Assembly: GCA_030690895.1 (NCBI GenBank)
Contig: JAUYFQ010000062.1
Span: 1-40,000 of the forward strand
Direction: 5' to 3'
DNA: 40,000 nt
From: Sulfuricellaceae bacterium
GTDB taxonomy: Bacteria > Pseudomonadota > Gammaproteobacteria > Burkholderiales > Sulfuricellaceae
Numbering within the stretch: the first letter of the stretch is position 1; each line of letters starts with the position of its first letter. Below are positions 7,050 through 40,000 of this stretch, in pieces. The notes under the pieces were generated by a model that saw nothing but the letters and a program-made list of their open reading frames with translations, had not been told where the DNA came from and ran no database searches. Both the position numbers and the translations under genes were made by a program.

Positions 7050-8282
7050 TCACTTCGTTTGGAATGCGCTGGACATCAATTCAACTTCGGCATTTGAAAT
7101 GCCAGTCTTCCTGGCCACACTTTTCCATTTTCCAACAACGCTCAAAATTTCTTCAACAACCATCCCCGCTTGACCGGTATCAAGTCCATACCATGCTGCG
7201 GTTGATAAAGCGGCATCCAGGTTGGGACGATTATCCGACTCGTCGATGTTCAGGACGTGTTCTGCCTTGTCAATATTCGGATTAACATCAAAAGCAGGGG
7301 AGAGTCGCCACCCATCAGACCCCAGTAGAAAACCATGATTACGCAAATGGTCGTCACGATTGGACACGGCGATATTGAATACGACACGGCGAAACAACTG
7401 CTCAAGATCAGAGTGTAGTGTTCTGCCAGCACCGTTGTTATGGAGAAATTGGGCAATATCCAGGTAACTGGCGCCCTCGCTTTGTTGCTTCTTCAGCATG
7501 GTCATGGCTGAGGTATAAAACACGCGATTATGACCAGATCTATCAAAACGCTGCACACAGAAGGTGTGATACTGGCTTCCAAAACGCAGAACTCGTGCTG
7601 GCGGCATGATTACGTTTGCCGTCAGTGCCAAGGTGTGTAGCACAGCTTCCCATGCACCAATATCCCGGTCATCATCACGTGCTGGAAATTTTGCTATCCA
7701 TAATGACCCATCGTTATCGGTAAAATTTGCTTTGGGTCTGGCGCCACCCAATGATGCCCCTGGTGCAACGAGTACCGACAACCAGCGCCGCAGAGCATCC
7801 AGATCCGTGATGTGCTTATTGGTGATTTCACGGGCAACCGCTTCAAGTTCACGCAGGCTTGCAACGGGTGGGGCAGGCAATCGATGAGCGGCAAGAAACT
7901 CGGTGGACCCTTCATGACGAAAGCGTAGCGCCCCCTGCCTTGTTGCATCCTGTACGCCGATCAAGTAGTCCCATGAATGCAATGTCCTGGTTTGGCGTTT
8001 GGCATCCTTTGCCTCCAATGCCTCGCGACGCTTCATGAGCGTCTGCCCCCATCGATCAGGTGATGAATCGAGGAACACGCCAAAGTTGCCTGCGTCCGGG
8101 TTAGGGAAAAAAGGGGCTGCGTCCAGGGACAAATCTGGATCCAGCACAAAACTGGAAGGATGCTTGAGCCACGCAGGATCGTAATGGAATCTAATCTGCC
8201 CTCGATCATGCATGAGCAACCCGACTTTGTGCATTCCTTCAATGAAATCAACGTCGAGCCAGACCTCAAGCGTGTCGCTCAC
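7050..8282 (-). CDS. hipA: HipA-family serine/threonine kinase toxin (type II TA)
   Basis: 410 aa with HipA N-terminal coupling-domain-like sequence and a kinase core (NRDDHLRNHGFL). The GTG start overlaps the hipB stop (GTGA). Confidence 0.85.
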   Translation of the reverse strand: MSDTLEVWLDVDFIEGMHKVGLLMHDRGQIRFHYDPAWLKHPSSFVLDPDLSLDAAPFFPNPDAGNFGVFLDSSPDRWGQTLMKRREALEAKDAKRQTRTLHSWDYLIGVQDATRQGALRFRHEGSTEFLAAHRLPAPPVASLRELEAVAREITNKHITDLDALRRWLSVLVAPGASLGGARPKANFTDNDGSLWIAKFPARDDDRDIGAWEAVLHTLALTANVIMPPARVLRFGSQYHTFCVQRFDRSGHNRVFYTSAMTMLKKQQSEGASYLDIAQFLHNNGAGRTLHSDLEQLFRRVVFNIAVSNRDDHLRNHGFLLGSDGWRLSPAFDVNPNIDKAEHVLNIDESDNRPNLDAALSTAAWYGLDTGQAGMVVEEILSVVGKWKSVARKTGISNAEVELMSSAFQTK

Positions 8283-8699: not shown

Positions 8700-10511
8700 T
8701 TACTCGGGTTTTTCAGTGGACCGGCCAGCGTTTTTCCGCCGCCGGGCATGGCGCAGAATGGCGGCCACCAGAATATCCGGCTCGATGGGTTTGGCGACAT
8801 GCTCTGCCATGCCGGAGGCCAGGCATTTGTCCCGCTCCTCTTCCATGGCATGCGCGGTGAGGCCGATGATGGGCAGGTCAGGCGAGAGTTCGCGCAGGCG
8901 CCGGGCGGCGGTGTGGCCGTCCATGACAGGCATCTGGATGTCCATCAGCACGATGTCCCATGAGTCCGCACCGTCACGCTCGACCTGCTCTACGGCCAGC
9001 AGGCCGTTGACGACACAGGTCACTTGCGCGCCTTCGTTGCTGAGCAGGTCTTTCAGTACCAGCCGGTTGAGGGCGTCGTCCTCGGCCGCCAGGATAGAAA
9101 TGCCAGCCAGATGCAGGTCGGCGGCCGAGGCAACTGCTGCCGGAGGCGGGAGCGGGGCAGGTGGTGCGATCTCGTCCAGCGGCAGCTGTACCACGAAGCG
9201 GGTGCCGGTCCAGGCAACACTGTTGACGTGGATTTCGCCACCCATCAGGTCGACCAGGCGCTTGCTGATGGCGAGTCCCAGCCCGGTGCCGCCAAAGTGG
9301 CGCGTCGTGGAACTGTCAGCCTGCTCGAAGGCGCTGAACAGGTGGCTGACCTGCTCCTTGCTCATGCCAATGCCGGTGTCGACGATCTCGAACACCAAGC
9401 GCCCGCCGTCCCGTCTGGCGGTCAGGGTGACGCTGCCTTGCTCGGAGAACTTGACGGCGTTATCGAGCAGGTTGACCAGCACCTGGGTCAGGCGCAGCGG
9501 GTCGCCCAGGCAGCCGGCGGGCAGACCGGCAGCCTTGTGCAGTGTGAAGGTCAAGCCCTTGGCACGCGCCTTTTCGGCGGCGAACTCGACGGCATGGTCG
9601 ATGACCGCGTCGAGGCTGATGGCTACCCGCTCGATGGTCAGCTTGCCGGCTTCGATCTTGGAGAAGTCGAGGATGTCATTGACGATGGCCAGCAGGTGCC
9701 GGCCTGCATCGTGGATACGGGCGAAGGTGGCAGAGGCATCGCTGCCGACGCCGCTGTCGCGCTGGCCGATGCGGGCGAGATTGAGCACGCCGTTGAGGGG
9801 AGTGCGTATTTCGTGACTCATGTTGGCGAGAAAGTCGTTCTTGACCTGGGCCAGGTGCTCGGCATCTGCCAGTGCAGCCGCGCGCGCGGCTTCAAGCGAG
9901 GCCAGAGCCTCCTCGGCTTGTTTGCGCTCGCTGATATCGGAGAACACAATGCGCACCACCGGGTCTTCGCCCACTTTTTGCAGCCGCAAGCTGTCCAGTC
10001 GTACGGGGAGGCGGGATCCATCGCCGCGCAAAAGCGTTACCTCGCTAATCTGATGGTCGCCATGTTGCGTCACGCGCAGGAAATTTTGCTGCCAGTGCTC
10101 GCTGTCCTCGGCGGCAATGAAGCGGGCGAAGCGACGCTGGATCAATTTGCTGCGGTCTTCTCCCAGCATTGCCGCGCCGGTAAGGTTGATTTCCAAGATC
10201 AGGGCATGGGCCGTGAGGGTGAGGTAGCCGACAGGGGCGAATTCATAGAGGTCGAGGTAGCGGGACTCTTCCAGGGCGAGCTGCGTCTGCCGCAAGGTTT
10301 CATTCTGCATTTCCAGTTCGATCTGGTGTACCTGGAGTTCGTGCAGCAGTTCCTCGGCTGGACGGAGCGGCACTGTCACCACTGGTGCATCGAGACCCAG
10401 TTGCGCCTCGGCCAGAATGCGCAGGGGGTCTTGCTGGTCCGGTTTCGTGCTCATTGGGGTCCCTTTAATGCCACTTGAAATGATCGACAGGCAGTTTGTT
10501 ACTTTGTCCAC
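8700..10511 (-). CDS. hybrid sensor histidine kinase (PAS, HisKA, HATPase, receiver)
   Basis: H-box SHEIRTPLNG, N-box LLDNAVKF, G-boxes DTGIGM and GGTGLGL, and a C-terminal receiver (ILAAEDD...LMDIQMPVMDG). Alternative ATG start at 10454. Confidence 0.85.
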   Translation of the reverse strand: MDKVTNCLSIISSGIKGTPMSTKPDQQDPLRILAEAQLGLDAPVVTVPLRPAEELLHELQVHQIELEMQNETLRQTQLALEESRYLDLYEFAPVGYLTLTAHALILEINLTGAAMLGEDRSKLIQRRFARFIAAEDSEHWQQNFLRVTQHGDHQISEVTLLRGDGSRLPVRLDSLRLQKVGEDPVVRIVFSDISERKQAEEALASLEAARAAALADAEHLAQVKNDFLANMSHEIRTPLNGVLNLARIGQRDSGVGSDASATFARIHDAGRHLLAIVNDILDFSKIEAGKLTIERVAISLDAVIDHAVEFAAEKARAKGLTFTLHKAAGLPAGCLGDPLRLTQVLVNLLDNAVKFSEQGSVTLTARRDGGRLVFEIVDTGIGMSKEQVSHLFSAFEQADSSTTRHFGGTGLGLAISKRLVDLMGGEIHVNSVAWTGTRFVVQLPLDEIAPPAPLPPPAAVASAADLHLAGISILAAEDDALNRLVLKDLLSNEGAQVTCVVNGLLAVEQVERDGADSWDIVLMDIQMPVMDGHTAARRLRELSPDLPIIGLTAHAMEEERDKCLASGMAEHVAKPIEPDILVAAILRHARRRKNAGRSTEKPE

Positions 10512-10528
10512 GTTATTGCGTAGCCCGA

Positions 10529-13459
10529 CTACGCCTTGATTTCTTCCATCGCCAGCAAAATCAATTGAACATCGCCGGATTTGCCGACGATACGACGGGC
10601 ATTCAACAGCATCCTGCGCCTGCCGATGACGGGGAAGTCATTTTCCACCACAAAACCCTCGAAACTCTGGTCGCGCGGCAGGATGGTATCCAGCAGTTCC
10701 CGCAATGCGGGAATGTCCCACTGGCGGTTGCCCAGTTCGTAGAGCGGACAACCCACGGTATCTTCCGCCGTGACCTGGAATTCCTGGTAAAACGAGCGGC
10801 TGGCCGAGGTGATTTGCAAGGCGCCATTCAGCACGACCAGCGGCTCGCGCACGGTATCGACGATGGCTTCGGCCAGTTCCCGCGCTGATCTCTCCGCCGC
10901 CTCGGCCCGGGTGCGTTCGCTGATGTCGGTGAAAGTCAGTACCACGCCTTCGATCACATTATCCAGCGTGCGGTAGGGCTGGATGCGGGCCAGGTAGCAG
11001 GCGTCGCCCGCAGTGCGCACCTCGCGCTCGCGTGGCGCCAGTGACTCGAGCACAGCCTTGGCATCGGCAAGCAGGTCTTCGTTCTCAAGATTGGATTTGA
11101 TGTCGCCCAGCGGCCGGCCCACGTCCGAGGCCACCAGGCGGTAGATGCCCGCTGCCTCGCGCGTGAAACGCTTGATCGACAGGTGCTGGTCGAGGAAGAT
11201 GGTGCCGATGTTGATGTTGTCGAGCAGATTCTTCATGTCGTTCTGCATCCCGGCCAGTTGCTCGATCTTGGCTTGCAGCTCGGCATTGACGGTCACCAGT
11301 TCTTCATTGACGGATTGCAGCTCTTCCTTGGAAGTTTCCAGTTCCTCGTTGGTGGATTGCAATTCTTCATTGGTCGACTGCAATTCCTCGTTGGTGGATT
11401 TGAGTTCTTCGTTGGAGGCCTGCTGTTCCTCGATGGTGGCCTGAAGATTTTCCCTGGTGTAGGCGAGATCGCGCTCCAGTTCCTCGACGCGCCGCTGTTC
11501 GCCATGCCCTGATGCCGCCCCCTTGCCGCGTCCCGGTTTGCCGGGTACTGGATGTGCCACGTCCTGGAAGCTGTTCAGCTGCAATTTCTCGTTGGAGTCA
11601 GGGTCGGGCAGGGGACGCAGGCTGAGGCTCACGGACTGAAAGTCGCCATTGGTCTTGATGTTCAGTTCGCGGCCCAGGGTGGGCATGCCCTGACCGGCGC
11701 CGATCAAGGCTGCGCGCAGTTCCAGTTGCAGGCCCTCGCGCGCCATGTCGACCACGTTGAGCGTGGCCTGACCGGGGGCCGGGCGCAGGTATTTGCCGGT
11801 GTCGCCGTGCACAAACAGGATGTTGCCCTTCATGTCTGTCACCACCGAGGCGGGCGCGTAGGCATGCAACAGCGTGCGTCTGGTCAGTTCGGCGAAGTTG
11901 GTTTCCTTGGTTTTCTTGATCACTTCACTTTGCCCCTTGGTATTGCCGTCGCCGGTCCACGACAGCCCGCCCGACATCACCGCACGGACGGAGGATGCAG
12001 AACCGGTAGCGCGGTAGAGCTTCCATTTGCGGTTGAGCGGTGCGAACAGCTCGGGGTGGTTGCCGGTGCTTTCCGAGGGCGAGAGAAACAGCACCCCACC
12101 CGGCTTGAGGGCGTAATGGAAGGCAGGGATGAGGCGGTTTTGCAGTTCCGGTTCCAGATAGATCATCAGGTTGCGGCAACTGAGCAGGTCGAGCCGGGTA
12201 AAAGGGGGGTCCTTGATAACGTTCTGGATGGCAAACACCACCATCTCGCGGATATCCTTCTTTACCCGGTAGCCCGCGTCCTCCTTGATGAAAAAGCGGC
12301 GCAGCCGCTCAGGGTGGATATCCTGGGCGATATTGGGCGGATAGATGCCGACACGCGCTATGGCAATGGCGTCATCGTCGAGGTCGGTGCTGTAGAGCTG
12401 GATTTTGAATTCCTGCCGTGTTTCATCCATGTACTCGCGCAGCAGCATGGCGATGGAATAGGACTCCTCGCCGGTGGCGCAACCCGCCACCCAGGCGCGG
12501 AATACATAGTCTTCGGGTTTGCCCGCCAGCAGTTGCGGCAGGACTTCCTCCTTCAGTTTTGCGAAGGCATCCGGATCGCGGAAGAAGCTGGTGACGTTGA
12601 TCAGCAGTTCCCTGAAAAGTATTTGCACCTCGGCTGGATGCTCCTTGAGATAGCGCGCGTAAATCTCGATATCCCCGATGTTGTGTTGCGACATGCGCCG
12701 CTCGATGCGGCGGCCGATGGTGCTCTTCTTGTATTGGGTGAAATCGTGGCCGGTGGCGCTGCGCAACAGCATCAAGATCCGTTTCATGCCGCTGGCTGCT
12801 GCGGGGGCTGGCGGCGCTTCATGCTGTACCGCCATGGCGTGCATGTCCGCCAACAGTATCGCGGGCATTTTTTCTACCGGCAGGACATGAGTGGCATAAC
12901 CGGCCTGGATGGCGCTGACGGGCATGCCGTCGTACTTGGCAGTGGTCGGTTCCTGCGCCAGTGTGACCCCGCCCGCGCCGAGGATGGCACGCAGTCCCAG
13001 CGTGCCGTCGGTGCCGGTGCCGGAAAGGATGATGCCAATCGCCTGCTCCCCCTGATCTTCGGCCAGTGAACGCAGGAAAGCGTCGATCGGCATGCGCTGA
13101 CCGCGTGGCAATTCCGGCACGGAGAGTTGCAGCGTGCCGTGGAAGATGGCCATGTCGCGGTTGGGCGGAATGACGTGAACCCGGTCAGGGGTCAACACCA
13201 TCTGATCCGTCGCTTCGACCACCGGCATGGCCGTGGTGCGTTGCAGGATTTCGCTGAGCAGGCTGGCATGGCTCGGGTCGAGATGTGGAACCAGTACGAA
13301 GGCCATGCCGCATTCGGGCGGGATATGGCGGAAAAATTGCTCGAAAGCTTCCAGTCCGCCGGCGGACGCGCCGATGCCGACAATGGGAAAAGCGGCAGCG
13401 CGGGTGTCCGGCGTTTCCGGGCTGGCAGCGGTCTTGATCTGGTTTTTCCTCACAGCCAT
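10529..13459 (-). CDS. CheB-methylesterase/CheR-methyltransferase fusion protein with coiled coil and PAS domains
   Basis: CheB-like GASAGGLEA, CheR-like SAM site (AGCATGEESYS), a heptad coiled coil (STNEELQ repeats) and a C-terminal PAS. The ATG at 13459 has AAGGA upstream; the ORF track begins at GTG 13489. Confidence 0.85.
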   Translation of the reverse strand: MAVRKNQIKTAASPETPDTRAAAFPIVGIGASAGGLEAFEQFFRHIPPECGMAFVLVPHLDPSHASLLSEILQRTTAMPVVEATDQMVLTPDRVHVIPPNRDMAIFHGTLQLSVPELPRGQRMPIDAFLRSLAEDQGEQAIGIILSGTGTDGTLGLRAILGAGGVTLAQEPTTAKYDGMPVSAIQAGYATHVLPVEKMPAILLADMHAMAVQHEAPPAPAAASGMKRILMLLRSATGHDFTQYKKSTIGRRIERRMSQHNIGDIEIYARYLKEHPAEVQILFRELLINVTSFFRDPDAFAKLKEEVLPQLLAGKPEDYVFRAWVAGCATGEESYSIAMLLREYMDETRQEFKIQLYSTDLDDDAIAIARVGIYPPNIAQDIHPERLRRFFIKEDAGYRVKKDIREMVVFAIQNVIKDPPFTRLDLLSCRNLMIYLEPELQNRLIPAFHYALKPGGVLFLSPSESTGNHPELFAPLNRKWKLYRATGSASSVRAVMSGGLSWTGDGNTKGQSEVIKKTKETNFAELTRRTLLHAYAPASVVTDMKGNILFVHGDTGKYLRPAPGQATLNVVDMAREGLQLELRAALIGAGQGMPTLGRELNIKTNGDFQSVSLSLRPLPDPDSNEKLQLNSFQDVAHPVPGKPGRGKGAASGHGEQRRVEELERDLAYTRENLQATIEEQQASNEELKSTNEELQSTNEELQSTNEELETSKEELQSVNEELVTVNAELQAKIEQLAGMQNDMKNLLDNINIGTIFLDQHLSIKRFTREAAGIYRLVASDVGRPLGDIKSNLENEDLLADAKAVLESLAPREREVRTAGDACYLARIQPYRTLDNVIEGVVLTFTDISERTRAEAAERSARELAEAIVDTVREPLVVLNGALQITSASRSFYQEFQVTAEDTVGCPLYELGNRQWDIPALRELLDTILPRDQSFEGFVVENDFPVIGRRRMLLNARRIVGKSGDVQLILLAMEEIKA
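11298..11423 (-). repeat. intragenic 21-bp tandem repeat (6 units) encoding the NEELQST heptad coiled coil
   Basis: The units at 11298, 11319, 11340, 11361, 11382 and 11403 are all variants of CAGTTCYTCRTTGGTGGATTG. Confidence 0.7.
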
Positions 13460-13630
13460 GAGTTCCTTGATTATGGGAGGCGTTGGCACGGGGTGGTCAG
13501 CACAAAATGCCCAAATCTAATTTGGCATCTTATTCCAAATTTACAGTCAATCCCACTACAGTTCGGCGGGTCTTTTCCTCATCTGCTCCAGACTTCTCCA
13601 CTGGTCTTCAGAAACGCCAGCAAAATTAAA

Positions 13631-20610: not shown

Positions 20611-23600
20611 TTAAGCCAGGGGTTTCTCTCCCCCCTCTTCGGCCAGCCTCTGATAGGCCCGGTAACGCTCCTCAATTTCCTGCTGGAAGACGGCCATGCA
20701 GGCATCGCCTTCCTTCTCGACATGTTTTAGCAAACCACGGAAACGCGGCTCGCTTTTGACCAGGTCGATGAAGGGGATGCTGGGGGCTTTTGAGTCCATG
20801 ACCAGCGGGTTCTTGCCTTCTGCGATGCGTCTTGGGTCGTGGCGGAACAGCGGCCAATGGCCGGAATCAACAGCCAGTTCCTGCTGGTGGTGCTGGTTGC
20901 TCATGTCGTAGCCGTGCTCGCCGCATGGGCTGTAGGCGATGATCAGCGAGGGGCCGTCGAAGGATTCGGCTTCCAGGAAGGTTTTGAGGGTATGGATGTC
21001 CTTTGCGCCGTAGGCGACATGGGCGACATAGACATTGCCGTAGCTCATGGCGATACGGGCCAGGTCTTTCTTGCCGGTGGCTTTTCCGTTGGCGGCGAAT
21101 TTGGCCGTGGCGCCGCGCGGGGTGGCTTTGCTGGCCTGACCGCCGGTGTTGGAATAAACCTCGGTATCGAGCACCAGAATATTGACGTTGCGCCCGGAGG
21201 CCAGCACATGATCGACGCCACCGAAGCCGATGTCGTAAGCCCAGCCGTCGCCGCCGATGATCCAGACGCTTTTCTTGACCAGGTTTTCCGCCAGGCTTTC
21301 CAGATTGCGCGCATCACTAATAAGGGACTCGCGTAGCGAGCCTGTGTCCCTCTCGCCTTTATGCCCTTCAGGGTACTCTGGGAGAGAGTTAGGAGAGAGG
21401 GAAATGATCGTCTTGAGTTTTGCCAATAGCTGCGCCACGCGCTCGCGCTGTTGCTGGATACCGGCTTCGCTGGACTGGTCGGCGGCGAGGATGGCGTCCA
21501 CCAGTTCTGTACCAAGCTGGTCTTTCATCTTTGTCGCCAGTTCGCCAGCATGTTCTGCATGTTTGTCGATGGTGACGCGGAAACCCAAACCAAATTCGGC
21601 GTTGTCCTCGAACAGCGAATTGTTCCAGGCCGGCCCGCGACCTTGCGTGTTCTGGCTATAGGGCGTGGTGGGCAGGTTGCCGCCGTAGATCGAGGAGCAG
21701 CCCGTCGCGTTGGCGACCACCATGCGGTCGCCGAACAATTGGGTAGCCAGGCGAATATAAGGCGTTTCTCCGCAACCCACACAGGCGGTGGGGAACTCGA
21801 ACAGCGGTTGCATCACCATGGCGCCCTTGATGGTGGAAATGCGCAGTTTGGTGCGGTCAAATTCCGGCAGTTTGAGGAAGAAGGCGAAGTTTTCCCGCTC
21901 TGTTACACGCAATGGCGCTTGTGGCCGCATTTCCAGCGCCTTGTGGCCGTCTTCCTTGCTCACCGCCGGGCAAATGTCCACGCACAGGCCGCAGCCGGTA
22001 CAGTCTTCCGGCGCAACCTGATAACTGACATGCATGCCTTCCTCGAACTCCTTGCCCTTGATCTGGATGTGCTTGAAGCTGGGCGGAGCGTCCTTGGCCA
22101 GTTCGGCATCAAATACCTTGGAGCGGATCGCGGTGTGCGGGCAGACGAAGGGGCATTTGCCGCAGTAGATACAGAGCGCTGCGTCCCATACCGGGATTTC
22201 CTGCGCCAGATTGCGCTTGTCGTAATGCGCGGTGCCGGTCGGCCAGGTGCCGTCGTTGGGCAGCAAGGACACCGGGATCAAATCGCCACGCCCGAGCATG
22301 ATTTCCCCGCTTACGCGGCGGACAAAGGCCGGTGCATTGGCCGGGATGTGGTTCTCCATTTCGAAGCAACTGGAAGACTGCTCGGGCACGTCCACCTGAT
22401 ACAGGTTGGCGAGGGTTTCGTCGATGGCTTTCCAGTTGGCTTCGACGATGGCCTGGCCTTTTTTGCCATAGGTTTTTTCAGCGGCGTATTTGATTTTCTC
22501 GATTGCCACGTCTTGCGGCAGCACGCCGGAAATGGCAAAAAAGCAGGCCTGCATGATGGTGTTGATGCGCGTCCCCATGCCAGTGGCGCGGGCGACGGCA
22601 TACGCATCAATCGTATAAAAGCGCAGTTTCTTGTCTATGATCTGTTGCTGCATCTTGCATGGCAATGTCGCCCAGACTTTATCAGGCGCAGCCGGTGAAT
22701 TCAGCAGGAACACCGCATTGTCAGCCGCGTTTTCGAGCATCTCGATGCGCTCGATGAAAATTGGCTGGTGGCAGGCGATGAAATTGGCCTCATCCGTGCC
22801 GATCAGGTAGCTGGAGTGGATGGGCTTGGGCGAAAAGCGCAGGTGCGAGGTGGTCATTGCTCCGGCTTTTTTCGAGTCATAGACGAAATAGCCTTGTCCA
22901 TAGAGTTCGGTTTCCTCACCCATGATCTTGATGGTGTTCTTGTTGGCAGAAACCGTGCCGTCCGAGCCCAATCCATAAAACAGCCCGCGCAACACGCCTG
23001 TCCCCGCATCGACGCGGTAGGCCGGGTTCCAGTCCAGGCTGGTGTGGGTGAGATCATCGATGATGCCGATGGTGAAATGATTCTTCGGTCTGTCCTTGCT
23101 GAGCTCGTCGAAAATGCCCGCGATCATGCCCGGTGTGAATTCCTTGGAGGAGAGGCCGTAACGACCGCCAACTACCGCTAACCCTCTCCCTAGCCCTCCC
23201 CCGCTCTTGTGCCCTTCAGGGTATGCGGGGGAGGGGACCATTGCTCCCTCTCCCGCCTGCGGGGGAGGGTTGGGGAGAGGGTTAATATTGGCGAGGGGGG
23301 TAGTGCTGGCGAAATTATCGAAAACCCCATGTTCTACCAGCGCAGTCACCACGTCCTTGTAAAGCGGTTCGCCATCTGCGCCAGGCTCCTTGCAGCGGTC
23401 GAGCACGGCAATTTTCCGGGTGCTGGCGGGCAGCACTTCGATCAGCCTCGAAGGGTCGAGAGGCCGATACAAGCGCACCTTGACCATGCCCACTTTCTCG
23501 CCGCGTGCGACCAGGTGTTGCACGGTTTCTTCCACCGCCTCGGCGCCAGAGCCCATGAGAATGATGATCCGCTCCGCGTCCGCCGCGCCTACATATTCAA

Positions 23601-24381
23601 ACAGCTTGTACTGACGTCCGGTGAGCTGGGCGAACTTGTCCATTTCATATTGCACGATGCCGGGCATCAGGTCGTAGTAGGCATTGACCGTTTCGCGTGC
23701 CTGGAAATACACGTCGGGGTTCTGCGAGGTACCGCGCACCACCGGGTGCTCGGGCGAGAGCGCACGGGCGCGATGAGCGCGAACCAGTTCGTCGGAAATC
23801 ATTTCGCGTACGGTTTCGATCGGCACTTGCTCGATTTTCGCCACTTCATGCGAAGTGCGGAAGCCATCGAAAAAATGCAGAATCGGAATACGGGCTTCGA
23901 GCGTGGCGGCCTGGGCGATCAAGGCCAGATCCTGTGCTTCCTGCACCGAGTTGGAACTCAGAAAGGCAAACCCCGTCCCGCGCGCGGCCATCACGTCGCT
24001 ATGGTCGCCAAAAATGGACAAGCCCTGCGCGGCCAGCGAGCGCGCCGCCACATGCATCACGAAAGGCGTCAGTTCCCCGGCAATCTTGTACATGTTGGGA
24101 ATCATCAGGAGCAAACCCTGCGAAGCGGTGAAAGTCGTCGCCAGCGCCCCGGTCTGGAGCGCGCCATGAATGGTTCCCGCCGCGCCTGCCTCGCTTTGCA
24201 GTTCGATCACTTCCGGCACAGTGCCCCACAGGTTTTTCTGACCCATGGCGCTCCAGGCATCCGAATATTCCCCCATCGGCGAAGATGGCGTGATCGGATA
24301 AATGGCGATAACTTCGTTGGTGAGGTGAGCGATGTAGGCGGCGGCTTCGTTGCCGTCAACGGTGACTGTGGTGGCTGACAT
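20611..24381 (-). CDS. nifJ: pyruvate:ferredoxin (flavodoxin) oxidoreductase
   Basis: 1256 aa with two ferredoxin-type clusters (CIYCGKCPFVCP, CTGCGLCVDICP), the TPP motif GGDGWAYDIGFGG and AGGAG upstream of the ATG. It carries two repeat-derived in-frame insertions. Confidence 0.95.
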   Translation of the reverse strand: MSATTVTVDGNEAAAYIAHLTNEVIAIYPITPSSPMGEYSDAWSAMGQKNLWGTVPEVIELQSEAGAAGTIHGALQTGALATTFTASQGLLLMIPNMYKIAGELTPFVMHVAARSLAAQGLSIFGDHSDVMAARGTGFAFLSSNSVQEAQDLALIAQAATLEARIPILHFFDGFRTSHEVAKIEQVPIETVREMISDELVRAHRARALSPEHPVVRGTSQNPDVYFQARETVNAYYDLMPGIVQYEMDKFAQLTGRQYKLFEYVGAADAERIIILMGSGAEAVEETVQHLVARGEKVGMVKVRLYRPLDPSRLIEVLPASTRKIAVLDRCKEPGADGEPLYKDVVTALVEHGVFDNFASTTPLANINPLPNPPPQAGEGAMVPSPAYPEGHKSGGGLGRGLAVVGGRYGLSSKEFTPGMIAGIFDELSKDRPKNHFTIGIIDDLTHTSLDWNPAYRVDAGTGVLRGLFYGLGSDGTVSANKNTIKIMGEETELYGQGYFVYDSKKAGAMTTSHLRFSPKPIHSSYLIGTDEANFIACHQPIFIERIEMLENAADNAVFLLNSPAAPDKVWATLPCKMQQQIIDKKLRFYTIDAYAVARATGMGTRINTIMQACFFAISGVLPQDVAIEKIKYAAEKTYGKKGQAIVEANWKAIDETLANLYQVDVPEQSSSCFEMENHIPANAPAFVRRVSGEIMLGRGDLIPVSLLPNDGTWPTGTAHYDKRNLAQEIPVWDAALCIYCGKCPFVCPHTAIRSKVFDAELAKDAPPSFKHIQIKGKEFEEGMHVSYQVAPEDCTGCGLCVDICPAVSKEDGHKALEMRPQAPLRVTERENFAFFLKLPEFDRTKLRISTIKGAMVMQPLFEFPTACVGCGETPYIRLATQLFGDRMVVANATGCSSIYGGNLPTTPYSQNTQGRGPAWNNSLFEDNAEFGLGFRVTIDKHAEHAGELATKMKDQLGTELVDAILAADQSSEAGIQQQRERVAQLLAKLKTIISLSPNSLPEYPEGHKGERDTGSLRESLISDARNLESLAENLVKKSVWIIGGDGWAYDIGFGGVDHVLASGRNVNILVLDTEVYSNTGGQASKATPRGATAKFAANGKATGKKDLARIAMSYGNVYVAHVAYGAKDIHTLKTFLEAESFDGPSLIIAYSPCGEHGYDMSNQHHQQELAVDSGHWPLFRHDPRRIAEGKNPLVMDSKAPSIPFIDLVKSEPRFRGLLKHVEKEGDACMAVFQQEIEERYRAYQRLAEEGGEKPLA
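21346..21404. repeat. intragenic palindromic repeat in nifJ (encodes SLSPNSLPEYPEGHKGERD)
   Basis: Hairpin TCCCTCTC...GAGAGGGA. The 25-mer at 21380-21404 is the exact reverse complement of 31891-31915 (hoxU/Y junction). Confidence 0.8.
23179..23284. repeat. composite intragenic palindromic repeat in nifJ (encodes NPLPNPPPQAGEGAMVPSPAYPEGHKSGGGLGRGL)
   Basis: Two nested hairpins with outer ends TAACCCTCTCC...GGAGAGGGTTA. The core matches the copies at 31925 and 38659 with about 3 mismatches. Confidence 0.8.
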
Positions 24382-31168: not shown

Positions 31169-31906
31169 ATGAAGACTCTGAAAATAGACGGATGCGAAAT
31201 CCCCTTCACCACCGGGCAGACCATCATGGATGCGGCGCTGGCTGCCGGGGTTTATATCCCGCATCTGTGCCATCACCCCGAATTCAAGCCGCACGGTAGT
31301 TGCAAGCTGTGTACGGTGAAGGTGAACGGGCGTCATGTGTCGGCCTGTACCTTGCCGGTGGGCGAGGGTATGGAGGTGGAGAACAATAGTGCGGAACTGA
31401 ATGCCGATCGCCTTGCGCTGGTGCAGATGCTGTTTGTCGAGGGCAATCACTTGTGTCCGACTTGCGAAAAAAGCGGGAATTGCCAGCTCCAGGCGGTGGC
31501 CTACCATCTCAATATGTTGACCCCGCATTACAATCATTTTTACCCGCCGCGCGAGCTTGATGCCTCTCATCCCGATGTGTTCCTGGATCGCAACCGCTGC
31601 ATTTTGTGCGAGCTGTGTGTGCGAGCCAGTCGGGATGTGGATGGCAAGGAGGTGTTTGGCCTTTCCGGGCGTGGAGCCAGTTCCCGCCTGGTGGTGAATT
31701 CACCCAGCGGCAGGCTGGCCGATAGCAGCTTTGCTGTTACCGACAAGGCCGCCAGGGTGTGCCCGACCGGCGCGATTCTGATCAAGCGGGTGGGATTCAG
31801 CGTGCCGATTGGTGAGCGGATTTTTGATCGGCATGACATTAGTGAACTGGGCATTAGTGAACCGGGCGAAGGTGGAGGTCAACATGGCAGTTTCCCTCTC
31901 TCCTAA
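31169..31906 (+). CDS. hoxU: hydrogenase diaphorase iron-sulfur subunit HoxU
   Basis: A 2Fe-2S N-terminus (CHHPEFKPHGSCKLCTV) followed by 4Fe-4S motifs (CPTCEKSGNC, CILCELCVRAS). The last codons and the TAA stop lie inside a repeat element. Confidence 0.9.
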   Translation: MKTLKIDGCEIPFTTGQTIMDAALAAGVYIPHLCHHPEFKPHGSCKLCTVKVNGRHVSACTLPVGEGMEVENNSAELNADRLALVQMLFVEGNHLCPTCEKSGNCQLQAVAYHLNMLTPHYNHFYPPRELDASHPDVFLDRNRCILCELCVRASRDVDGKEVFGLSGRGASSRLVVNSPSGRLADSSFAVTDKAARVCPTGAILIKRVGFSVPIGERIFDRHDISELGISEPGEGGGQHGSFPLS

Positions 31907-32561
31907 CTCTCTCCCGGGGGGTAGCCCCCTCCCCAACCCTCCCCCGCAAGCGGGAGAGGGGGCAATGGTCAAGGGCGCTTGTTCTGATTTGAGGGACGCA
32001 GGCTCGCTTTGCGAGTCTCATATTAGGCCTAAAATCCGTATTGCCACCTGTTCGCTGGCGGGCTGCTTCGGCTGCCACATGTCCTTGCTGGATATTGATG
32101 AAAAACTGCTCGATCTGCTTGAGCTGGTCGAATTCAACCGTAGCCCGTTAACCGATATCAAACACTGCGGGCCGTGTGATGTCGGTATTGTCGAAGGCGG
32201 GGTGTGCAATGCCGAGAATGTCCACGTCCTGAAGGAATTTCGCAAGCACTGCAAGGTGTTGGTCGCCATGGGCGCCTGCGCGATTACCGGCGGCCTGCCC
32301 GCCATGCGCAACAATATTGACCTGTGGGACTGCTTTCAGGAGGTGTATCTGTACGAAGGCGGGCTGGAGGGTGGACAAATTCCAAATGACCCCGAGCTGC
32401 CCCTGCCGTTCGACAAGGTTCACCCCATCTATGAAGTGGTCAAAGTGGATTATTTCCTGCCCGGCTGTCCGCCCTCTGCCGATGCGATCTGGCACTTCTT
32501 GACCGAATTGCTGGCGGGCAGGGAACCAGGCGTGACCGGGAAGCAATTACATTTTGATTAG
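31884..32561 (+). CDS. hoxY: [NiFe] hydrogenase small subunit HoxY
   Basis: The conserved core starts at KIRIATCSLAGCFGCHMSLLDIDE. ATG 31884 has GGAGG 6 nt upstream. An alternative ATG at 31965 lies inside the repeat. The N-terminal ~27 aa are repeat-encoded. Confidence 0.85.
   Translation: MAVSLSPNSLPGGSPLPNPPPQAGEGAMVKGACSDLRDAGSLCESHIRPKIRIATCSLAGCFGCHMSLLDIDEKLLDLLELVEFNRSPLTDIKHCGPCDVGIVEGGVCNAENVHVLKEFRKHCKVLVAMGACAITGGLPAMRNNIDLWDCFQEVYLYEGGLEGGQIPNDPELPLPFDKVHPIYEVVKVDYFLPGCPPSADAIWHFLTELLAGREPGVTGKQLHFD
31888..31977. repeat. composite palindromic repeat at the hoxU/hoxY junction
   Basis: Module TTTCCCTCTCTCCTAACTCTCTCCC (31891-31915) plus a core at 31925-31977 that is 52/53 identical to 38659-38711. 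Confidence 0.85.
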
Positions 32562-32633
32562 GGATGTTGGCTGTTTCCGCACCCCTTATGTGTCCAGCGA
32601 TTCTGGAAATTACTGGGGCGTTTCTTGTTGTTT

Positions 32634-32646
32634 AACGCGTCGCGTT
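32634..32646 (+). promoter_or_regulatory. putative HigA operator upstream of higB
   Basis: Perfect palindrome AACGC-GTC-GCGTT, 14 nt upstream of the higB ATG. The same half-sites recur at 33054-33066. Confidence 0.45.
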
Positions 32647-32659
32647 ATATCATGCAGCC

Positions 32660-32938
32660 ATGATTCAGTCATTCAAGTGCAGCATTACGCAGGCGCTGTT
32701 TTCCGGGCAGGCTGCTCCACGCTTTATAAATATCCGTTCTGTTGCTGAACGAAAATTGCAAATGTTGCACCGGGCAACGCGTTTGGATGATTTGCGTATC
32801 CCGCCTCAAAATAGGCTGGAAAAGCTGAAAGGTACTCGCAAGGCGCAATGGAGTATCCGCATCAATGACCAATGGCGCATATGCTTTCGTTTTGAAGATG
32901 GGAATGCTTTTGAAGTTGAGATCGTGGACTACCACTAA
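32660..32938 (+). CDS. higB: HigB-type (RelE/ParE superfamily) toxin
   Basis: 92 aa with IRINDQWRICFRFEDGNAFEVEIVDYH, typical of plasmid-maintenance killer HigB. Confidence 0.8.
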   Translation: MIQSFKCSITQALFSGQAAPRFINIRSVAERKLQMLHRATRLDDLRIPPQNRLEKLKGTRKAQWSIRINDQWRICFRFEDGNAFEVEIVDYH

Positions 32939-33046
32939 CGGGCATGGCGAATTGCCGCCCCAAATAATGTACCCATGGGCATAAAAAACATCGATTCGCC
33001 ATGCCCGTTTCCCCCACCCCTGCCCTCCCCCGGTGGGAGAGGGGGA
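32939..33046. repeat. two repeat hairpins in the higB-higA spacer
   Basis: Hairpin CGGGCATGGCGAATTG (32939-32954) with CGATTCGCCATGCCCG (32992-33007), then a degenerate GC-rich core CCCCCACCCCTGCCCTCCCCCGGTGGGAGAGGGGG (33011-33045). Confidence 0.65.
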
Positions 33047-33084
33047 CGAAGGCAACGCTTCGCGTTGTTTCACGTTAAAAGGAA

Positions 33085-33399
33085 ATGATTGTGACTGTGA
33101 CCAATGGCATGCGCCCGATTCATCCGGGAGAAATTTTGCGCGAGGAATTCATGATCCCTCTGGGACTGTCTGCCAACGCGTTGGCGCTCGCCCTGCGCGT
33201 ACCTGCGCCACGCGTTAATGACATTGCGCGAGAGCGACGCGCGATCAGTGCCGATACCGCTCTACGCCTGTCACGCTATTTTGGCACCAGCGCGGAATTC
33301 TGGCTGGGCTTACAAGCTGACTTTGACCTGAAAATCACTCAGGCTGAAAATGGCATCAAAATTGAACAGGATATTGTCCCCATGCCCGTTGCGGCATAG
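33085..33399 (+). CDS. higA: HigA-family HTH antitoxin
   Basis: Contains HPGEILREEF...GLSANALALALRVPAPRVNDIARERRAISADTALRLSRYFGTSAEFWLGLQ, classic HigA/VapI. Alternative ATG at 33109. Confidence 0.85.
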   Translation: MIVTVTNGMRPIHPGEILREEFMIPLGLSANALALALRVPAPRVNDIARERRAISADTALRLSRYFGTSAEFWLGLQADFDLKITQAENGIKIEQDIVPMPVAA

Positions 33400-36578: not shown

Positions 36579-39500
36579 TTAACCCGCCACCACTCGAACC
36601 CTGCCTTGCTCATCCCGCACAGCCCGCCCCAGCGCCACCAGGGTTTCCAGCAGTTGCGGCAAGCGTTTTTTCCATGCGCCCTTGCCGCTGAAATGCTCGG
36701 CCAGCTCGGACTCGGAAAGCGGCTTGCCTGCGCTGGACAAAATCTGGGCGATGGCGGCCATTTGGGCGGGGAGTTCGGCGGGCCAGGGGGATTTGCTTTG
36801 CGCATTCTCCCCCTCGCCGGTATTTACCCCCTCCCCAACCCTCCCCCGGAGGGAGAGGGGGCTATCCATTGGGGTTTCAGCGTTTGTACCATTAAGTTGC
36901 TGCTGTTGCGGGGCTGCCTGGGGATGCTGGTAGGCGGGGCGCAGCCAGCGGATTTGGCCTTGGGCTTCCTCGGCGGCGCGTTCGGTGTTGAGGGCGACGA
37001 GTCTTTCGAGGATAGTTTCGGCCACGCCCCCTTCTCCTCCGGCCTGGTAGGGCGCAATAACCAACGGGCATTGCGCCGGAGGCATCTGGTGCAATGCGCC
37101 ACGCTTATTGCACCCTACAATATCCAGGTCGCTCCAGCCATAAGCTTGCAGCACCGCCGCATCAAGGTCGTCGTGGAAGGATTTGAGCACGGCGACCAGG
37201 CCTTTTTCGTAAATCGCCTGCTCCTTCGCGTTTCGGTCTGCGCCAGTTCTCAGTTTTTCCAGCACGTTATATAGCCCGGTCAGCGTTAACTCTGGATGCT
37301 CGGCCAGCACGCGCTTGCGGTGGGCGTCGAGCTGTTCGGCGAGAGAGCGAATGCGAGCAGATAAAACAAATCGCTCTTGTCCATTGCCCCCTCTCCCTCC
37401 GGGGGAGGGTTGGGGAGGGGGTAAGTCGGGGAAAGGGAAAGTCTCGAAGCAGCGGGATTTGTTGTAGCGCGGCCTGTCTTCCAGCGTGCCACCTTGCGCC
37501 AGCGCCCAGATGACATGCACCTGGCTCGACAGCACGCCCAGCCAATAAGCATCATCGAGCGCGATGCAAATCAGTTTGTTGTCCGGCGCAATTTCAGCAT
37601 CCAGAAACTGGAAAACTCGGTGCTTGGCGGTTTCGACGGTGGCGATGTAGCGTGGCAGGCCGGTGAGCGTGGCACGCATGACTTTGCGCGGCTCTCCGAA
37701 AATCCACCAGTTGTCGCGGTAACTTGCCCGGTTGTTGAGGTCACGTTCGGGTTTTACCCGTTCCAGCACCCATTGATAGGTGGCTGGCCAGCGGCGACGC
37801 ACTTCGTCTGCATCATGGCCGTAGAGATCGATCAATTTGACGCCGCGCGGTCGGTCGGTGAGGTCGCGACCATTGCGGTAGGGCTTGATTGGCGCATCGG
37901 TTTCGAGTTGCGCAGCTTGTTCCGGCGTGACGATAAAACCCGAACCAAACAACTGAAAACCACGATTCGCAAGCCCTTCATTGGCCCGCAACCCCAACGC
38001 CCCCGCCACATTCGCCCCAATGCTCAAGTCGGCATGAATCACGCCAACACGCTGTGCCAGCGTCACTTCCAACCCCTCGCCGCTGCCGCTTCGCTCGTCG
38101 GTCACGGTGAGCAGGCATCCCTGCTCCCCTCTCCCTCCGGGGGAGGGGGTGGGGGTGGGGGAGGGGGAGGGGGAGGGCACGCCAACCGTCATCGCAATCC
38201 GAACCGCCGCGCCGCCGCTGTTTTCCACCCAGGGATGGTCGGGGATGGCGAAGGCCAGGTGTAGCATCTTCACCCTCTCCCCAACCCCTCTCCCGTCAAG
38301 GGAGAGGGGTTTTTCTCCCCTCCCCCCTCGCGGGGGAGGGGCTGGGGGAGAGGGGTTTAAGGTCGGAGAGGGAGATAAATACGCTTCCAGCACGCGGCGG
38401 TTGAAGGTCTGGCGCAGGCTGTTGGTGGTGATGAAGCCAAAGCGTTGCGCCTTGCCTGCTGTGACCAGCGCGGCGGCCTTGTGCCACCAGAACATGACCA
38501 GGTCGGCGGATTCCGGCACCTCCGGGTAGGCGGCGCGCAAGGCGTCCACGTAGGCGTCGCCCAGCGCGGCACGCATGGCGGATGCGCCGATGAAGGGCGG
38601 GTTGCCGATGATGTAGTCGGCTTCGGGCCAATCTGCTGGTTTACCCTTGCCTGCTTTACCCCCTCCCCAACCCTCCCCCGCAAGCGGGAGAGGGGGCAAT
38701 GGTGAAGGGCGATGGGTTTTATCTGGGGGCAATGGTGAGGGGCGATTGTTTAGAACGGCGTCACGGCATTCGATGTTGTGAAAATCGCGCAGCACCGGTT
38801 CGGGCGGGAGGCTGGCGCCTTTTGTGCGGAAGTGCCATTGCAGGTGGCCGATCCATAGCACCAGTTCGGCGATGGCGGCGGCGCGGGGGTTGAGTTCGAT
38901 TCCAAGAAACTGGTGCGGATCGACGGTCAGTCCTTCGGCGTCGAGACTGCCGGAGGCGCCGAGGTCTTGCAGCAAATCCAGCACTTCGCCTTCGAGCCGC
39001 TTCATGTGTTCCATAGTGACGTAGAGGAAGTTGGCCGAGCCGCAGGCGGGGTCGAGTACGCGAATGTTGCATAGCCGGTAGTGGAAGGCGCGGATTTCCT
39101 GTTGCGCTTCTTTTGCGCGGCCTTCGCGGTCGAGCAGCAGGGCGGCGGCCTGGATGTTGGCCCATTCTGCGCGTAGCGGTTCCATCACGGTGGGGAGCAC
39201 CAGGCGTTCGACGTAGGCGCGGGGGGTGTAGTGCGCGCCGAGGCTGTGGCGTTCGCTGGGGTCGAGGGCGCGTTCGAGCAGGGTGCCAAAAATGGCGGGT
39301 TCGACCAGCGTCCAGTCGGCATGGGCGGCGCGTAACAAAAGGGTGATTTGTTCGCGGTTTAACGCTAGCGCGGTTGGATTTTTGAAGAACTTGCCGTTGA
39401 AGCGCGGCAGTTTGGCGCGCAGGGCGATGGAGAAACCGCCGCTGTCCATTTTTTGCCACAGTTCGCTGACCATGGCTTCAAATTGTTCCGGCGCGTCGGC

Positions 39501-40000
39501 CAGACTTTCGAGCAGGGCGGTGAAGCCGCCTTTGCCGTCTTGTCTGGGTAGCAGGGCGACATCTTCGGCGAACAGGGTGAACAGGCAGCGGGTGAGGAAT
39601 CCGGCGACTTCGTGGGTGTCGTGCCCGGCCTGTTCGAGCGATTTGGCGAGCAAAGCGAGGTCGGCGGAGATTTTACGGGTGACTTTTGCGGAGATGCGGG
39701 TGGGGTCGAGCGCCATGGGGTCTAGCCAGACCTGGCGCAGGCGTTCGCGGATTTCAGGCCGGTTCAGGTCGGGTATGCGGATGCGGTGGCTGCCAGGGTC
39801 GGGATAGGGCAGGTATGCGCCGCCACTGCGGCTGAATTCGCTGTATAGCTCGATGACATCGCCGACATCGATGATGATCAGAAAGGGTGGGCGGGTTTCG
39901 TCAGATGGCAAGCTGCGGGCGTAGTTTTGCGCTTGGCCATGGGCGCCGCGCAGGGCGATTTTAGCACCCTGAGTTTCGCGGTTCTGCTGCACGCCTTTGG
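36579..40000 (-). CDS. MmeI-like (type IIL/IIG family) N6-adenine DNA methyltransferase; 5' end outside the window
   Basis: SAM motif I VLDPACGSANFL, motif IV NPPFIGA, and a helical spacer FLTRCLFTLFAEDVALLP as in the MmeI family. The frame stays open to the window edge, so the GTG at 39992 is probably internal. Five repeat-derived insertions. Confidence 0.8.
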   Translation of the reverse strand, partial: KGVQQNRETQGAKIALRGAHGQAQNYARSLPSDETRPPFLIIIDVGDVIELYSEFSRSGGAYLPYPDPGSHRIRIPDLNRPEIRERLRQVWLDPMALDPTRISAKVTRKISADLALLAKSLEQAGHDTHEVAGFLTRCLFTLFAEDVALLPRQDGKGGFTALLESLADAPEQFEAMVSELWQKMDSGGFSIALRAKLPRFNGKFFKNPTALALNREQITLLLRAAHADWTLVEPAIFGTLLERALDPSERHSLGAHYTPRAYVERLVLPTVMEPLRAEWANIQAAALLLDREGRAKEAQQEIRAFHYRLCNIRVLDPACGSANFLYVTMEHMKRLEGEVLDLLQDLGASGSLDAEGLTVDPHQFLGIELNPRAAAIAELVLWIGHLQWHFRTKGASLPPEPVLRDFHNIECRDAVLNNRPSPLPPDKTHRPSPLPPLPLAGEGWGGGKAGKGKPADWPEADYIIGNPPFIGASAMRAALGDAYVDALRAAYPEVPESADLVMFWWHKAAALVTAGKAQRFGFITTNSLRQTFNRRVLEAYLSPSPTLNPSPPAPPPRGGRGEKPLSLDGRGVGERVKMLHLAFAIPDHPWVENSGGAAVRIAMTVGVPSPSPSPTPTPSPGGRGEQGCLLTVTDERSGSGEGLEVTLAQRVGVIHADLSIGANVAGALGLRANEGLANRGFQLFGSGFIVTPEQAAQLETDAPIKPYRNGRDLTDRPRGVKLIDLYGHDADEVRRRWPATYQWVLERVKPERDLNNRASYRDNWWIFGEPRKVMRATLTGLPRYIATVETAKHRVFQFLDAEIAPDNKLICIALDDAYWLGVLSSQVHVIWALAQGGTLEDRPRYNKSRCFETFPFPDLPPPQPSPGGRGGNGQERFVLSARIRSLAEQLDAHRKRVLAEHPELTLTGLYNVLEKLRTGADRNAKEQAIYEKGLVAVLKSFHDDLDAAVLQAYGWSDLDIVGCNKRGALHQMPPAQCPLVIAPYQAGGEGGVAETILERLVALNTERAAEEAQGQIRWLRPAYQHPQAAPQQQQLNGTNAETPMDSPLSLRGRVGEGVNTGEGENAQSKSPWPAELPAQMAAIAQILSSAGKPLSESELAEHFSGKGAWKKRLPQLLETLVALGRAVRDEQGRVRVVAG
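36805..36873. repeat. intragenic GC-rich palindromic repeat, methyltransferase locus A
   Basis: Core CCCCCTCCCCAACCCTCCCCCGGAGGGAGAGGGGG (36827-36861), translated antisense as SPLSLRGRVGEGV. Confidence 0.75.
37381..37425. repeat. intragenic GC-rich palindromic repeat, methyltransferase locus B (reverse orientation)
   Basis: CCATTGCCCCCTCTCCCTCCGGGGGAGGGTTGGGGAGGGGGTAAG, translated as LPPPQPSPGGRGGNG. Confidence 0.8.
38120..38177. repeat. intragenic repeat hairpin plus G5-run tract, methyltransferase locus C
   Basis: CCCCTCTCCCTCC/GGGGGAGGGGG followed by (G5N)n to 38177; encodes PSPSPSPTPTPSPGGRGEQG. Confidence 0.75.
38268..38378. repeat. intragenic double palindromic repeat, methyltransferase locus D
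   Basis: Hairpins at 38273-38309 and 38315-38355; encodes SPSPTLNPSPPAPPPRGGRGEKPLSLDGRGVGERV. Confidence 0.75.
38637..38752. repeat. intragenic GC-rich palindromic repeat, methyltransferase locus E
   Basis: Core at 38659-38711 (52/53 identical to 31925-31977) plus a direct duplication of GGGGGCAATGGTGA(A)GGGCGAT. Lies between the DAVL motif and WPEADYIIGNPPF. Confidence 0.8.

Follow-up and report, generated by a model that had tools for sequence, protein, structure and literature searches.

Seven in-frame repeat-derived inserts in a complete MmeI-family restriction-modification gene of a Sulfuricellaceae bacterium

How can a gene remain open through one repeat-derived insertion after another? 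The question is raised by the end of a 40,000-nucleotide (nt) stretch of DNA from a Sulfuricellaceae bacterium (NCBI GenBank assembly GCA_030690895.1, contig JAUYFQ010000062.1, positions 1 to 40,000; hereafter the window), where a minus-strand open reading frame (ORF) of 1139 open codons terminates with TAA at 36579-36581 and extends beyond the window end. An initial annotation, made from the letters of the window alone, described this ORF as an MmeI-like DNA methyltransferase interrupted by five repeat-derived segments and proposed that either selection or a frame-preserving insertion mechanism keeps it open. The best explanation, and in our judgment a probable one, is that this is a complete MmeI-family restriction-modification gene into which repeats were inserted without regard to the reading frame, the frame itself being kept by selective filtering.

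The full protein is a 1245-amino-acid (aa) polypeptide, here called P0001, and its first 106 codons fall outside the window. It is deposited at NCBI as 'MAG: hypothetical protein Q8O37_06900 [Sulfuricellaceae bacterium]', encoded on a contig of 51,844 bp, and was recovered by protein search with 100% identity over the window part. The resemblance to MmeI noted initially is borne out by the presence of all four MmeI domains of Pfam on the full sequence (MmeI_N, E = 1.2e-17; MmeI_hel, 9e-15; MmeI_Mtase, E = 4e-32; MmeI_TRD, 2e-9) and by a sequence match to its sole solved relative, MmeI itself (PDB 5HR4, E = 7e-39). Three P0001 stretches cover MmeI residues 167-435, 476-544 and 706-823 in the HMMER alignment, with the methyltransferase motif region aligned to residues 359-370 and 476-544, and the top PADLOC profile is REase_MTase_IIG (PDLC03627, Type IIG restriction enzyme-methyltransferase; 1361 bits). 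Foldseek, queried with the AlphaFold2 model of P0001, returned only 5HR4 (E = 2e-13, probability 1.00, ~740 columns), with a TM of only 0.31/0.43 that reflects a poor query model; the mean predicted local distance difference test (pLDDT) score of this model is 61, and it served for secondary-structure context and fold confirmation, not for surface placement. The family is spread across phyla at 45-60% identity, as seen in the protein search and in scans of GTDB and JGI data. Members characteristically cut at a fixed distance (20/18) from a specific sequence, methylate N6 of adenine (m6A) and, lacking a companion methyltransferase, protect the host by modifying a single strand.

The label of methyltransferase alone, by contrast, has to be abandoned, since the full protein contains a PD-ExK nuclease motif, FIDCYRRGSFVLEAK, that reads D95-X9-E105-A-K107. 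The spacing is the same as that of the MmeI nuclease residues D70/E80/K82 (PMC2731913), and the EAK triplet is almost invariant across the family in the homologue alignment. The initial remark that the last visible residues show no obvious E-x-K is explained by the cut at the window edge, which leaves K107 as the first residue in view; P0001 supplies the N-terminus that the window cuts off, that is, the first 106 residues including D95 and E105. The motif was assigned by spacing and Pfam rather than by residue-level alignment to MmeI; a phmmer search with the insert-free P0001 N-terminal domain gave no match in the PDB, and in 5HR4 no ordered structure is seen for the nuclease domain of MmeI (PMC4833311). 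Because the PD-ExK motif has the MmeI spacing and the PADLOC profile is of Type IIG, the gene would encode a full restriction-modification enzyme and not a methyltransferase alone.

The methyltransferase motifs are equally recognisable. Residues D, P, A, C and G of motif I are invariant in 61 homologues, and the corresponding motif of MmeI, FDPACGCGxFL, has the gamma-class pattern (PMC4833311). The domain order of P0001 is nuclease, helical spacer, gamma-class N6-adenine methyltransferase, target recognition domain (TRD) and a C-terminal extension; as predicted from its sequence, the ORF is thus a complete Type IIG/IIL restriction-modification gene of the MmeI family, encoding a single polypeptide. 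We looked for a multi-gene defence system around it and found no conservation of neighbouring genes in the 36 homologous loci whose flanks are complete, which fits a stand-alone single-polypeptide system of the MmeI type (PMC2731913). Downstream of the gene, the window holds a DUF4124 gene on the opposite strand.

Alignment of P0001 with 119 homologues defines seven inserts, A to F within the window and N in the N-terminal part outside it (Table 1), which together amount to ~190 extra residues. All seven net length changes are divisible by three. The five segments proposed initially are all real, each being extra relative to the 119 homologues and located correctly within ~20 nt, but the count was too low, as inserts F and N had been missed. 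The statements that the family motifs on both sides of the inserts share one frame (VLDPACGSANFL; WPEADYIIGNPPFIGA at 38583-38630; AIPDHPWV at 38226-38249; FETFPFP at 37428-37448) and that insert E lies between motif I and the catalytic motif IV proved correct.

Table 1 Coordinates of the restriction-modification gene, its motifs and inserts, and the other repeat copies in the window
Feature	Coordinates	Strand	Details
MmeI-family Type IIG/IIL restriction-modification gene, C-terminal part	36579..39998	(-)	1139 codons + TAA; P0001 aa 107-1245
K107 codon, lysine of the PD-ExK nuclease motif	39996..39998	(-)	first visible residue; D95 and E105 outside the window
Methyltransferase motif I (S-adenosylmethionine, AdoMet, binding), VLDPACGSANFL	39024..39059	(-)	aa 420-431; contains DPACGSANFL
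Methyltransferase motif IV (catalytic), NPPF	38592..38603	(-)	aa 572-575, after motif I; PMC4833311
Insert A, 20 aa, DSPLSLRGRVGEGVNTGEGE	36807..36866	(-)	variable linker before the C-terminal domain; core 36827-36861
Insert F, 33 aa, DIVGCNKRGALHQMPPAQCPLVIAPYQAGGEGG	37026..37124	(-)	net +32 aa (96 nt); 72-nt near-perfect palindrome 37047-37118
Insert B, 22 aa, DLPPPQPSPGGRGGNGQERFVL	37362..37427	(-)	net +16 aa (48 nt); core 37387-37421 + tail; immediately after FETFPFP
Insert C, 19 aa, PSPSPSPTPTPSPGGRGEQ	38121..38177	(-)	net +14 aa (42 nt); between the AVRIAMTV and LLTVTDER strands
Insert D, 39 aa replacing a ~7-aa native loop	38265..38381	(-)	net +34 aa (102 nt); triplex-motif units 38273-38310 and 38316-38352
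Insert E, 33 aa, RPSPLPPDKTHRPSPLPPLPLAGEGWGGGKAGK	38646..38744	(-)	net +33 aa (99 nt) relative to short-loop homologues; triplex-motif core 38659-38695
Insert N, P0001 aa 60-90, peptide ALAPLSPRGRGAGGEGDTGGEGEASPRVQAS	beyond window end	(-)	net +24 aa (72 nt); homologue alignment
Repeat in frame inside the pyruvate:ferredoxin oxidoreductase (PFOR) gene	23185..23325	(-)	unit 23246-23281, partner 23182-23235
Intergenic copy, hoxU-like/hoxY-like gap	31925..31961	(-)	+ tail to ~31985
Copy in hoxY-like/hoxH-like gap	33011..33045	(-)	pattern match

When translated, the inserts form loops that are Pro/Ser/Leu-rich and then Gly/Glu/Arg-rich. Insert N is situated four residues upstream of the catalytic D95, insert B at the junction between the TRD and the C-terminal helices (MmeI residue ~823-826), and insert C near the methyltransferase/TRD junction according to the HMMER alignment to MmeI. 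Insert D is made of two units inverted relative to each other (DNA fold of -38.2 kcal/mol, z = -5.7). Insert E, in a predicted coil with pLDDT below 50, has a duplicated 27-nt tail (38692-38718 and 38725-38751). The palindrome of insert F is of another kind than the other repeats (DNA fold z = -3.8) and adjoins a G-rich remnant (AGGEGG); no other copy of it was found in the window, the 160 homologous loci described below or plasmids.

The shared core of the repeat consists of a C-rich block, a short loop, a G-rich block, a linker of 2-4 nt and a second G-rich block, over 33-38 nt in all; an example is CCCCCTCTCCC-TCC-GGGGGAGGG-TT-GGGGAGGGGG, and the 35-nt core reads CCCCCTCTCCCTCCGGGGGAGGGTTGGGGAGGGGG. 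Searching the window with the pattern CCCNCNCCC-N3-7-GGGNGNGGG-N1-4-GGGNGNGGG gave 8 strict and 9 relaxed matches, as opposed to none in 19 of 20 shuffled sequences and one in the remaining shuffle. Six of the nine fall inside the 3.4-kb gene (binomial p = 2.6e-5), and seven are translated in frame within two conserved genes, the restriction-modification gene and the PFOR gene. In several copies a shared ~30-nt tail (CAATGGNSAAGRGCGAT..GTTTTATCTG) extends the core into a longer imperfect palindrome. Folded as DNA hairpins, the inverted pairs of insert D and of the PFOR gene are strong (z = -5.7 and -8.2), while single units are no better than shuffles (z from -1.8 to +1.1).

This organisation fits, by its sequence, the architecture of the G/C-rich intrastrand triplex motif TM_ECO, formerly BoxC or PIT, described by Holder et al. 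2015 (PMC4666352), a published family that the initial annotation did not recognise. TM_ECO follows the pattern CCCTCNCCC-N3-6-GGGNGAGGG-N3-GGGNGAGGG, occurs in 3610 copies in 262 proteobacterial genomes and forms a triplex in vitro; it is associated with local genomic instability and shows no tie to mobile elements already known; the units of E. coli K-12, 34-37 nt long, are 'always located intergenically' (PMC4666352). The intergenic location describes the E. coli copies and does not define the family, for which we allowed one mismatch. The copy at 23246-23281 matches the TM_ECO pattern literally, those in A, B and E and at 31925 are one base off in the third block (GGGAGGGGG), and the C and D copies are looser. 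The core of this lineage (GGGGGAGGG-TT-GGGGAGGGGG) is stop-free whichever of the six frames is read; in the E. coli consensus, between one and three frames are closed by stops. When whole inserts rather than cores are considered, stops do occur in the other frames, so that the openness of the gene is not a trivial property of the repeats. As another candidate for the identity of the repeat, the Betaproteobacterial repeat element (BRE) was considered and rejected, its supplementary sequences holding none of the motif words. Rfam returned no family at the gathering threshold anywhere in the window.

REP elements are mobilised by the RAYT (TnpA_REP) Y1 transposase, whose gene is flanked by REP doublets. 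Neither a RAYT nor another candidate mobilising enzyme is present in the window, where the only transposase is of the IS66 type (DUF6444 and zf-IS66 domains; 3194-4627, minus strand).

The copies inside the gene are of unequal age. The A and B cores are identical at 35/35 positions, lie in inverted orientation and are 525 nt apart; the core of insert E is identical at 37/37 positions to the intergenic copy at 31925-31961, 6.7 kb away. Such identity implies that some of the insertions, or gene conversions, are recent. The copies in inserts C and D, on the other hand, are degenerate and hence older, and the ORF has nonetheless stayed intact since. The A (36827-36861) and B (37387-37421) cores sit within 55-nt arms that are 87% complementary.

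How the insertion sites behave in other members of the family can be read from 160 homologous loci collected by a GTDB genome scan and a JGI metagenome scan, 154 of which hold intact ORFs. No close relative of P0001 was found in these scans (best, 61% over the full length). The closest is a 771-aa fragment, L020, with 79% amino-acid identity over the shared part, and the comparison of filled and empty sites against it is confined to sites N, D and E. Sites N and D are empty in L020. At site E, L020 and 103 of the 119 homologues have a native conserved 62-aa segment, while P0001 (38586-38777) resembles a minority short-loop class (GKPA[DE]WPEADY) to which the repeat is added; this suggests a mosaic origin or a loss of the native segment. 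At site C, triplex-motif-like inserts occupy the same position in L020 and in P0016/P0069, and the L020 copy, in the opposite orientation, is an independent insertion. More generally, private inserts of at least 8 aa, one or more per protein, occur in 68 of 120 family members, with a concentration at sites D and F, where those of the homologues come from other repeat families (IPAKAGIQ..RRNDG, LRQAQGER).

Triplex-motif matches also recur elsewhere in the family. The locus L134 (3989-7723, JGI Ga0209792_1001232; 46% identity) is intact with six in-frame matches, at positions that differ from those of P0001: the nuclease/spacer junction, a TRD loop and after HRKRVLA. One or two matches each are found in L060, L122, L081, L001 and L020; L001 was flagged as not intact in the single-ORF check, yet a 1218-aa ORF (9842-13498) spans its whole homologous gene, and the other four passed. 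Insert positions vary among lineages. In P0001 the inserts are mostly at length-variable or domain-boundary positions, and in the AlphaFold2 model all of them are in predicted coil flanked by helices or strands; that short insertions between conserved elements are tolerated is known from the MmeI literature (PMC2731913). A further homologue, P0056, has a 200-aa insertion with Pfam PF04480/PF18741 in the linker equivalent to window ~36770-36950, flanked by triplex-motif-like peptides (PLTPSPSPRTRGEGG…); here an entire domain seems to have entered at a site that bears the repeat.

What, then, keeps the frame? The 19 intragenic units of the P0001 gene, the PFOR gene and six homologues fall into all six orientation-by-phase classes (counts of 3/4/4 and 3/3/2). 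One and the same DNA core is accordingly read as several peptides (GEGWGGG, RGGRG, GRGVGER and others), and the native residues at the insert junctions are variably replaced. These observations bear on the idea that the insertion mechanism is itself frame-preserving, either through multiple-of-three units or through a codon-aware process. It would explain why all seven net lengths are divisible by three and could draw on a core that is stop-free in six frames, but an intact ORF forces multiples of three whatever the mechanism, and their presence is uninformative. Moreover, the net lengths vary from 42 to 102 nt, the cores from 33 to 38 nt and the E. coli units from 34 to 37 nt, insertions are seen in both orientations and all phases with variable junction residues, and whole inserts do hold stops in other frames. 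We regard such a mechanism as very improbable. The same reasoning qualifies the calculation of the initial annotation, in which each insert would keep the frame one time in three, giving (1/3)^5 for five of them: the arithmetic is sound but ignores survivorship, an intact gene showing only the in-frame events.

Selection, in turn, has left its own signs. The ratio of nonsynonymous to synonymous substitution rates (dN/dS) between P0001 and L020 is 0.23 (dS 0.72, 675 codons), that is, purifying selection on average over their divergence. At columns on which six outgroups are unanimous, private changes number 9 in P0001 and 11 in L020 (p = 0.82), and the two have another 29 departures in common, so that no rate acceleration is detectable in the P0001 lineage. 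P0001 keeps 413 of the 439 columns conserved at at least 95%, and its catalytic motifs are all intact. Relaxed selection, which had been named at the outset as one of the signs of a decaying gene, is thus not seen. A leave-one-out conservation analysis, in which P0001 is the most deviant sequence (23/439 columns), was considered as a decay signal and rejected, because in its own hit list P0001 occupies the outgroup position, and at the stricter columns just described 29 of its departures are common to L020 while only 9 are private.

Taken together, the varied net lengths, both orientations, all phases, the independent inserts in homologues and the low dN/dS lead us to infer that selection, rather than the mechanism of insertion, explains the preserved frame and sets the length classes of the inserts. 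Of the two possibilities raised initially, the evidence is on the side of selection and lends no support to a frame-preserving mechanism. In the scenario that we propose, a dispersed G/C-rich repeat would have colonised the restriction-modification gene in this Sulfuricellaceae lineage by DNA insertion that appears blind to the reading frame. A working enzyme would survive only those events that are a multiple of three and fall in loops or domain junctions, purifying selection removing the rest, and the core that is stop-free in all six frames would remove a second hurdle. In this scenario the enzyme would still be active today.

Several observations weigh against this scenario. The dN/dS of 0.23 averages the whole divergence from L020, most of which is possibly older than the inserts. 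Given the recent identical copies (A/B and E/31925), a gene put out of action by one of them could still lack a stop codon. The length of sites N and B is invariant in 116-118 of the 119 homologues, the site B loop being 12 aa in 118 of them, and inserts N and B could damage function. Lastly, the assignment of the inserts to coil is a weak call, given the mean pLDDT of the model and the low confidence of native TRD segments as well.

These points feed an alternative in which one or more of the young insertions recently inactivated the gene, candidates being N, adjacent to the catalytic Asp, and E, inside the methyltransferase domain; the frame would be open only for lack of time. Such a history would be in line with the near-perfect identity of the copies, with the invariance of sites N and B elsewhere, with a number of private inserts in P0001 that none of the 119 homologues reaches, and with the frequent disruption of restriction genes in sequenced isolates (PMC2731913). 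It would nevertheless require seven independent multiple-of-three indels in a neutral gene, for which (1/3)^7 is ~5e-4, and the ORF has outlived the older, degenerate insertions C and D. Neither a surplus of unique substitutions nor a damaged catalytic motif accompanies the inserts, and homologues with up to six of them are intact. We consider recent inactivation unlikely, though it deserves more weight than the other alternatives.

Could the repeats instead be retained for a function? They might act as hot spots of instability or recombination (switching the enzyme off or swapping the TRD), as structured modulators of transcription or translation, or as flexible linkers. Triplex-motif loci are indeed tied to local genomic instability in E. 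coli (PMC4666352), and within the gene family the motif reaches ~3 times its density in the 1.56 Mb of flanking DNA (12 vs 11 matches; p = 0.006 by hit, 0.07 by locus), although the tolerance of a non-essential gene explains this enrichment equally well. The TRD is flanked by inserts C/D on one side and B on the other. Cores A and B are identical and inverted, and inversion of the segment between them in silico would truncate the protein 23 codons past site B, with no alternative open frame. Against a function, the insert positions differ among lineages, so that the conservation expected of a functional element is seen for no insert, the PFOR gene carries repeats too, and no rearranged allele was found in GTDB and JGI scans that gave no close relative. 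Retention for some function is, in our view, improbable. Its more specific form has, if anything, a slightly smaller chance: the repeats would be built-in sites of instability or recombination through which the cell could turn off or reshape an enzyme that modifies a single strand and is potentially self-toxic. Examples would be an A/B inversion that truncates the protein just after the TRD and an exchange of the TRD bracketed by C/D and B. If true, this idea would account for the enrichment of the repeat in this gene family across lineages.

Outside the restriction-modification gene, the PFOR gene (nifJ-like; ORF 20611-24381, minus strand, 1256 aa) offers the second example of a translated copy. 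Its insert of ~45 aa (…NINPLPNPPPQAGEGAMVPSPAYPEGHKSGGGLGR) has no counterpart in solved PFOR structures (Moorella 6CIN). A second repeat variant in this gene, at 21334-21402, is read as SLSPNSLPEYPEGHKGERDTGSL, and both variants hold a GCCCTTCAGGGTA loop read YPEGHK. The remaining two copies are intergenic, between hox-like genes. Adjoining the one at 31925 (31894-31985), a variant block, CCCTCTCTCCTAACTCTCTCCC, forms the last codons and the TAA of the hoxU-like ORF 31169-31906. The hoxY-like/hoxH-like gap that harbours the other (32561-33350) measures ~790 nt, which is unusually long for a hox operon; its only ORF, 32669-33073 on the minus strand, has no Pfam match. A HipA-like toxin kinase gene is located at 7050-8282 on the minus strand.

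The locus shows that triplex-motif repeats can be translated inside conserved genes of a free-living betaproteobacterium, and that one protein can absorb seven segments while the family motifs and the signs of purifying selection persist. MmeI-type enzymes are engineering targets, and the insert sites amount to a natural map of where they are permissive; the locus also offers a compact case in which insertion bias and selective filtering of small repeats can be told apart. There may also be a consequence for annotation: the inserts may lower profile coverage by breaking profile matches in annotation pipelines, with the name 'hypothetical protein' as the outcome. NCBI gives this name to P0001, P0044, P0072 and P0089, whereas 'class I SAM-dependent DNA methyltransferase' is what the majority of the named homologues are called; among these four, inserts are established for P0001.

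How does this gene compare with known systems? It has the same domain order (PD-ExK, helical spacer, m6A methyltransferase, TRD) as MmeI and other Type IIL and Type IIG enzymes (5HR4; Morgan 2009, PMC2731913; Callahan 2016, PMC4833311), and it shares with MmeI the D-X9-E-X-K spacing, the DPACG..FL and NPPF motifs, an apparently stand-alone arrangement and the tolerance of short insertions. It differs from MmeI by an identity of only ~18% in the structural alignment, by its membership of a longer subfamily (1070-1200 aa, PDLC03627), and by a ~200-aa C-terminal extension past the MmeI helical bundle together with the seven repeat-derived inserts.

The repeat resembles TM_ECO in its C-rich 9-mer, loop of 3-6 nt, G-rich 9-mer, linker of 2-4 nt and second G-rich 9-mer, and in its copies, which are dispersed in both orientations, often as inverted pairs, with no associated transposase in view. 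Unlike TM_ECO, which in E. coli is described as invariably intergenic, seven of the nine window copies are in frame inside genes; the lineage variant differs further in being stop-free in six frames and in the 30-nt tail of several copies. Small palindromic repeats in coding regions are themselves well documented, as Rickettsia RPE, BRE, RUP/BOX and Coxiella QMITEs, which leave the frame unbroken and lengthen otherwise conserved proteins by stretches of peptide (PMC1779305, PMC3184786, PMC3110155, PMC5896051). As with RPE, we find a dispersed palindromic repeat both between genes (31925, 33011) and in frame within them (restriction-modification gene, PFOR), and absent from the orthologues. RPE, however, measure 100-150 bp and reside in obligate intracellular hosts, whereas the cores here are ~35 nt long, the host is a free-living betaproteobacterium, and seven insertions in one gene are unusually dense. 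The in-frame insertion of small repeats is thus a known, Rickettsia RPE-like phenomenon; what is new here is the family involved, reported to be intergenic in E. coli, its density of seven inserts in one gene, and its recurrence across a restriction-enzyme family.

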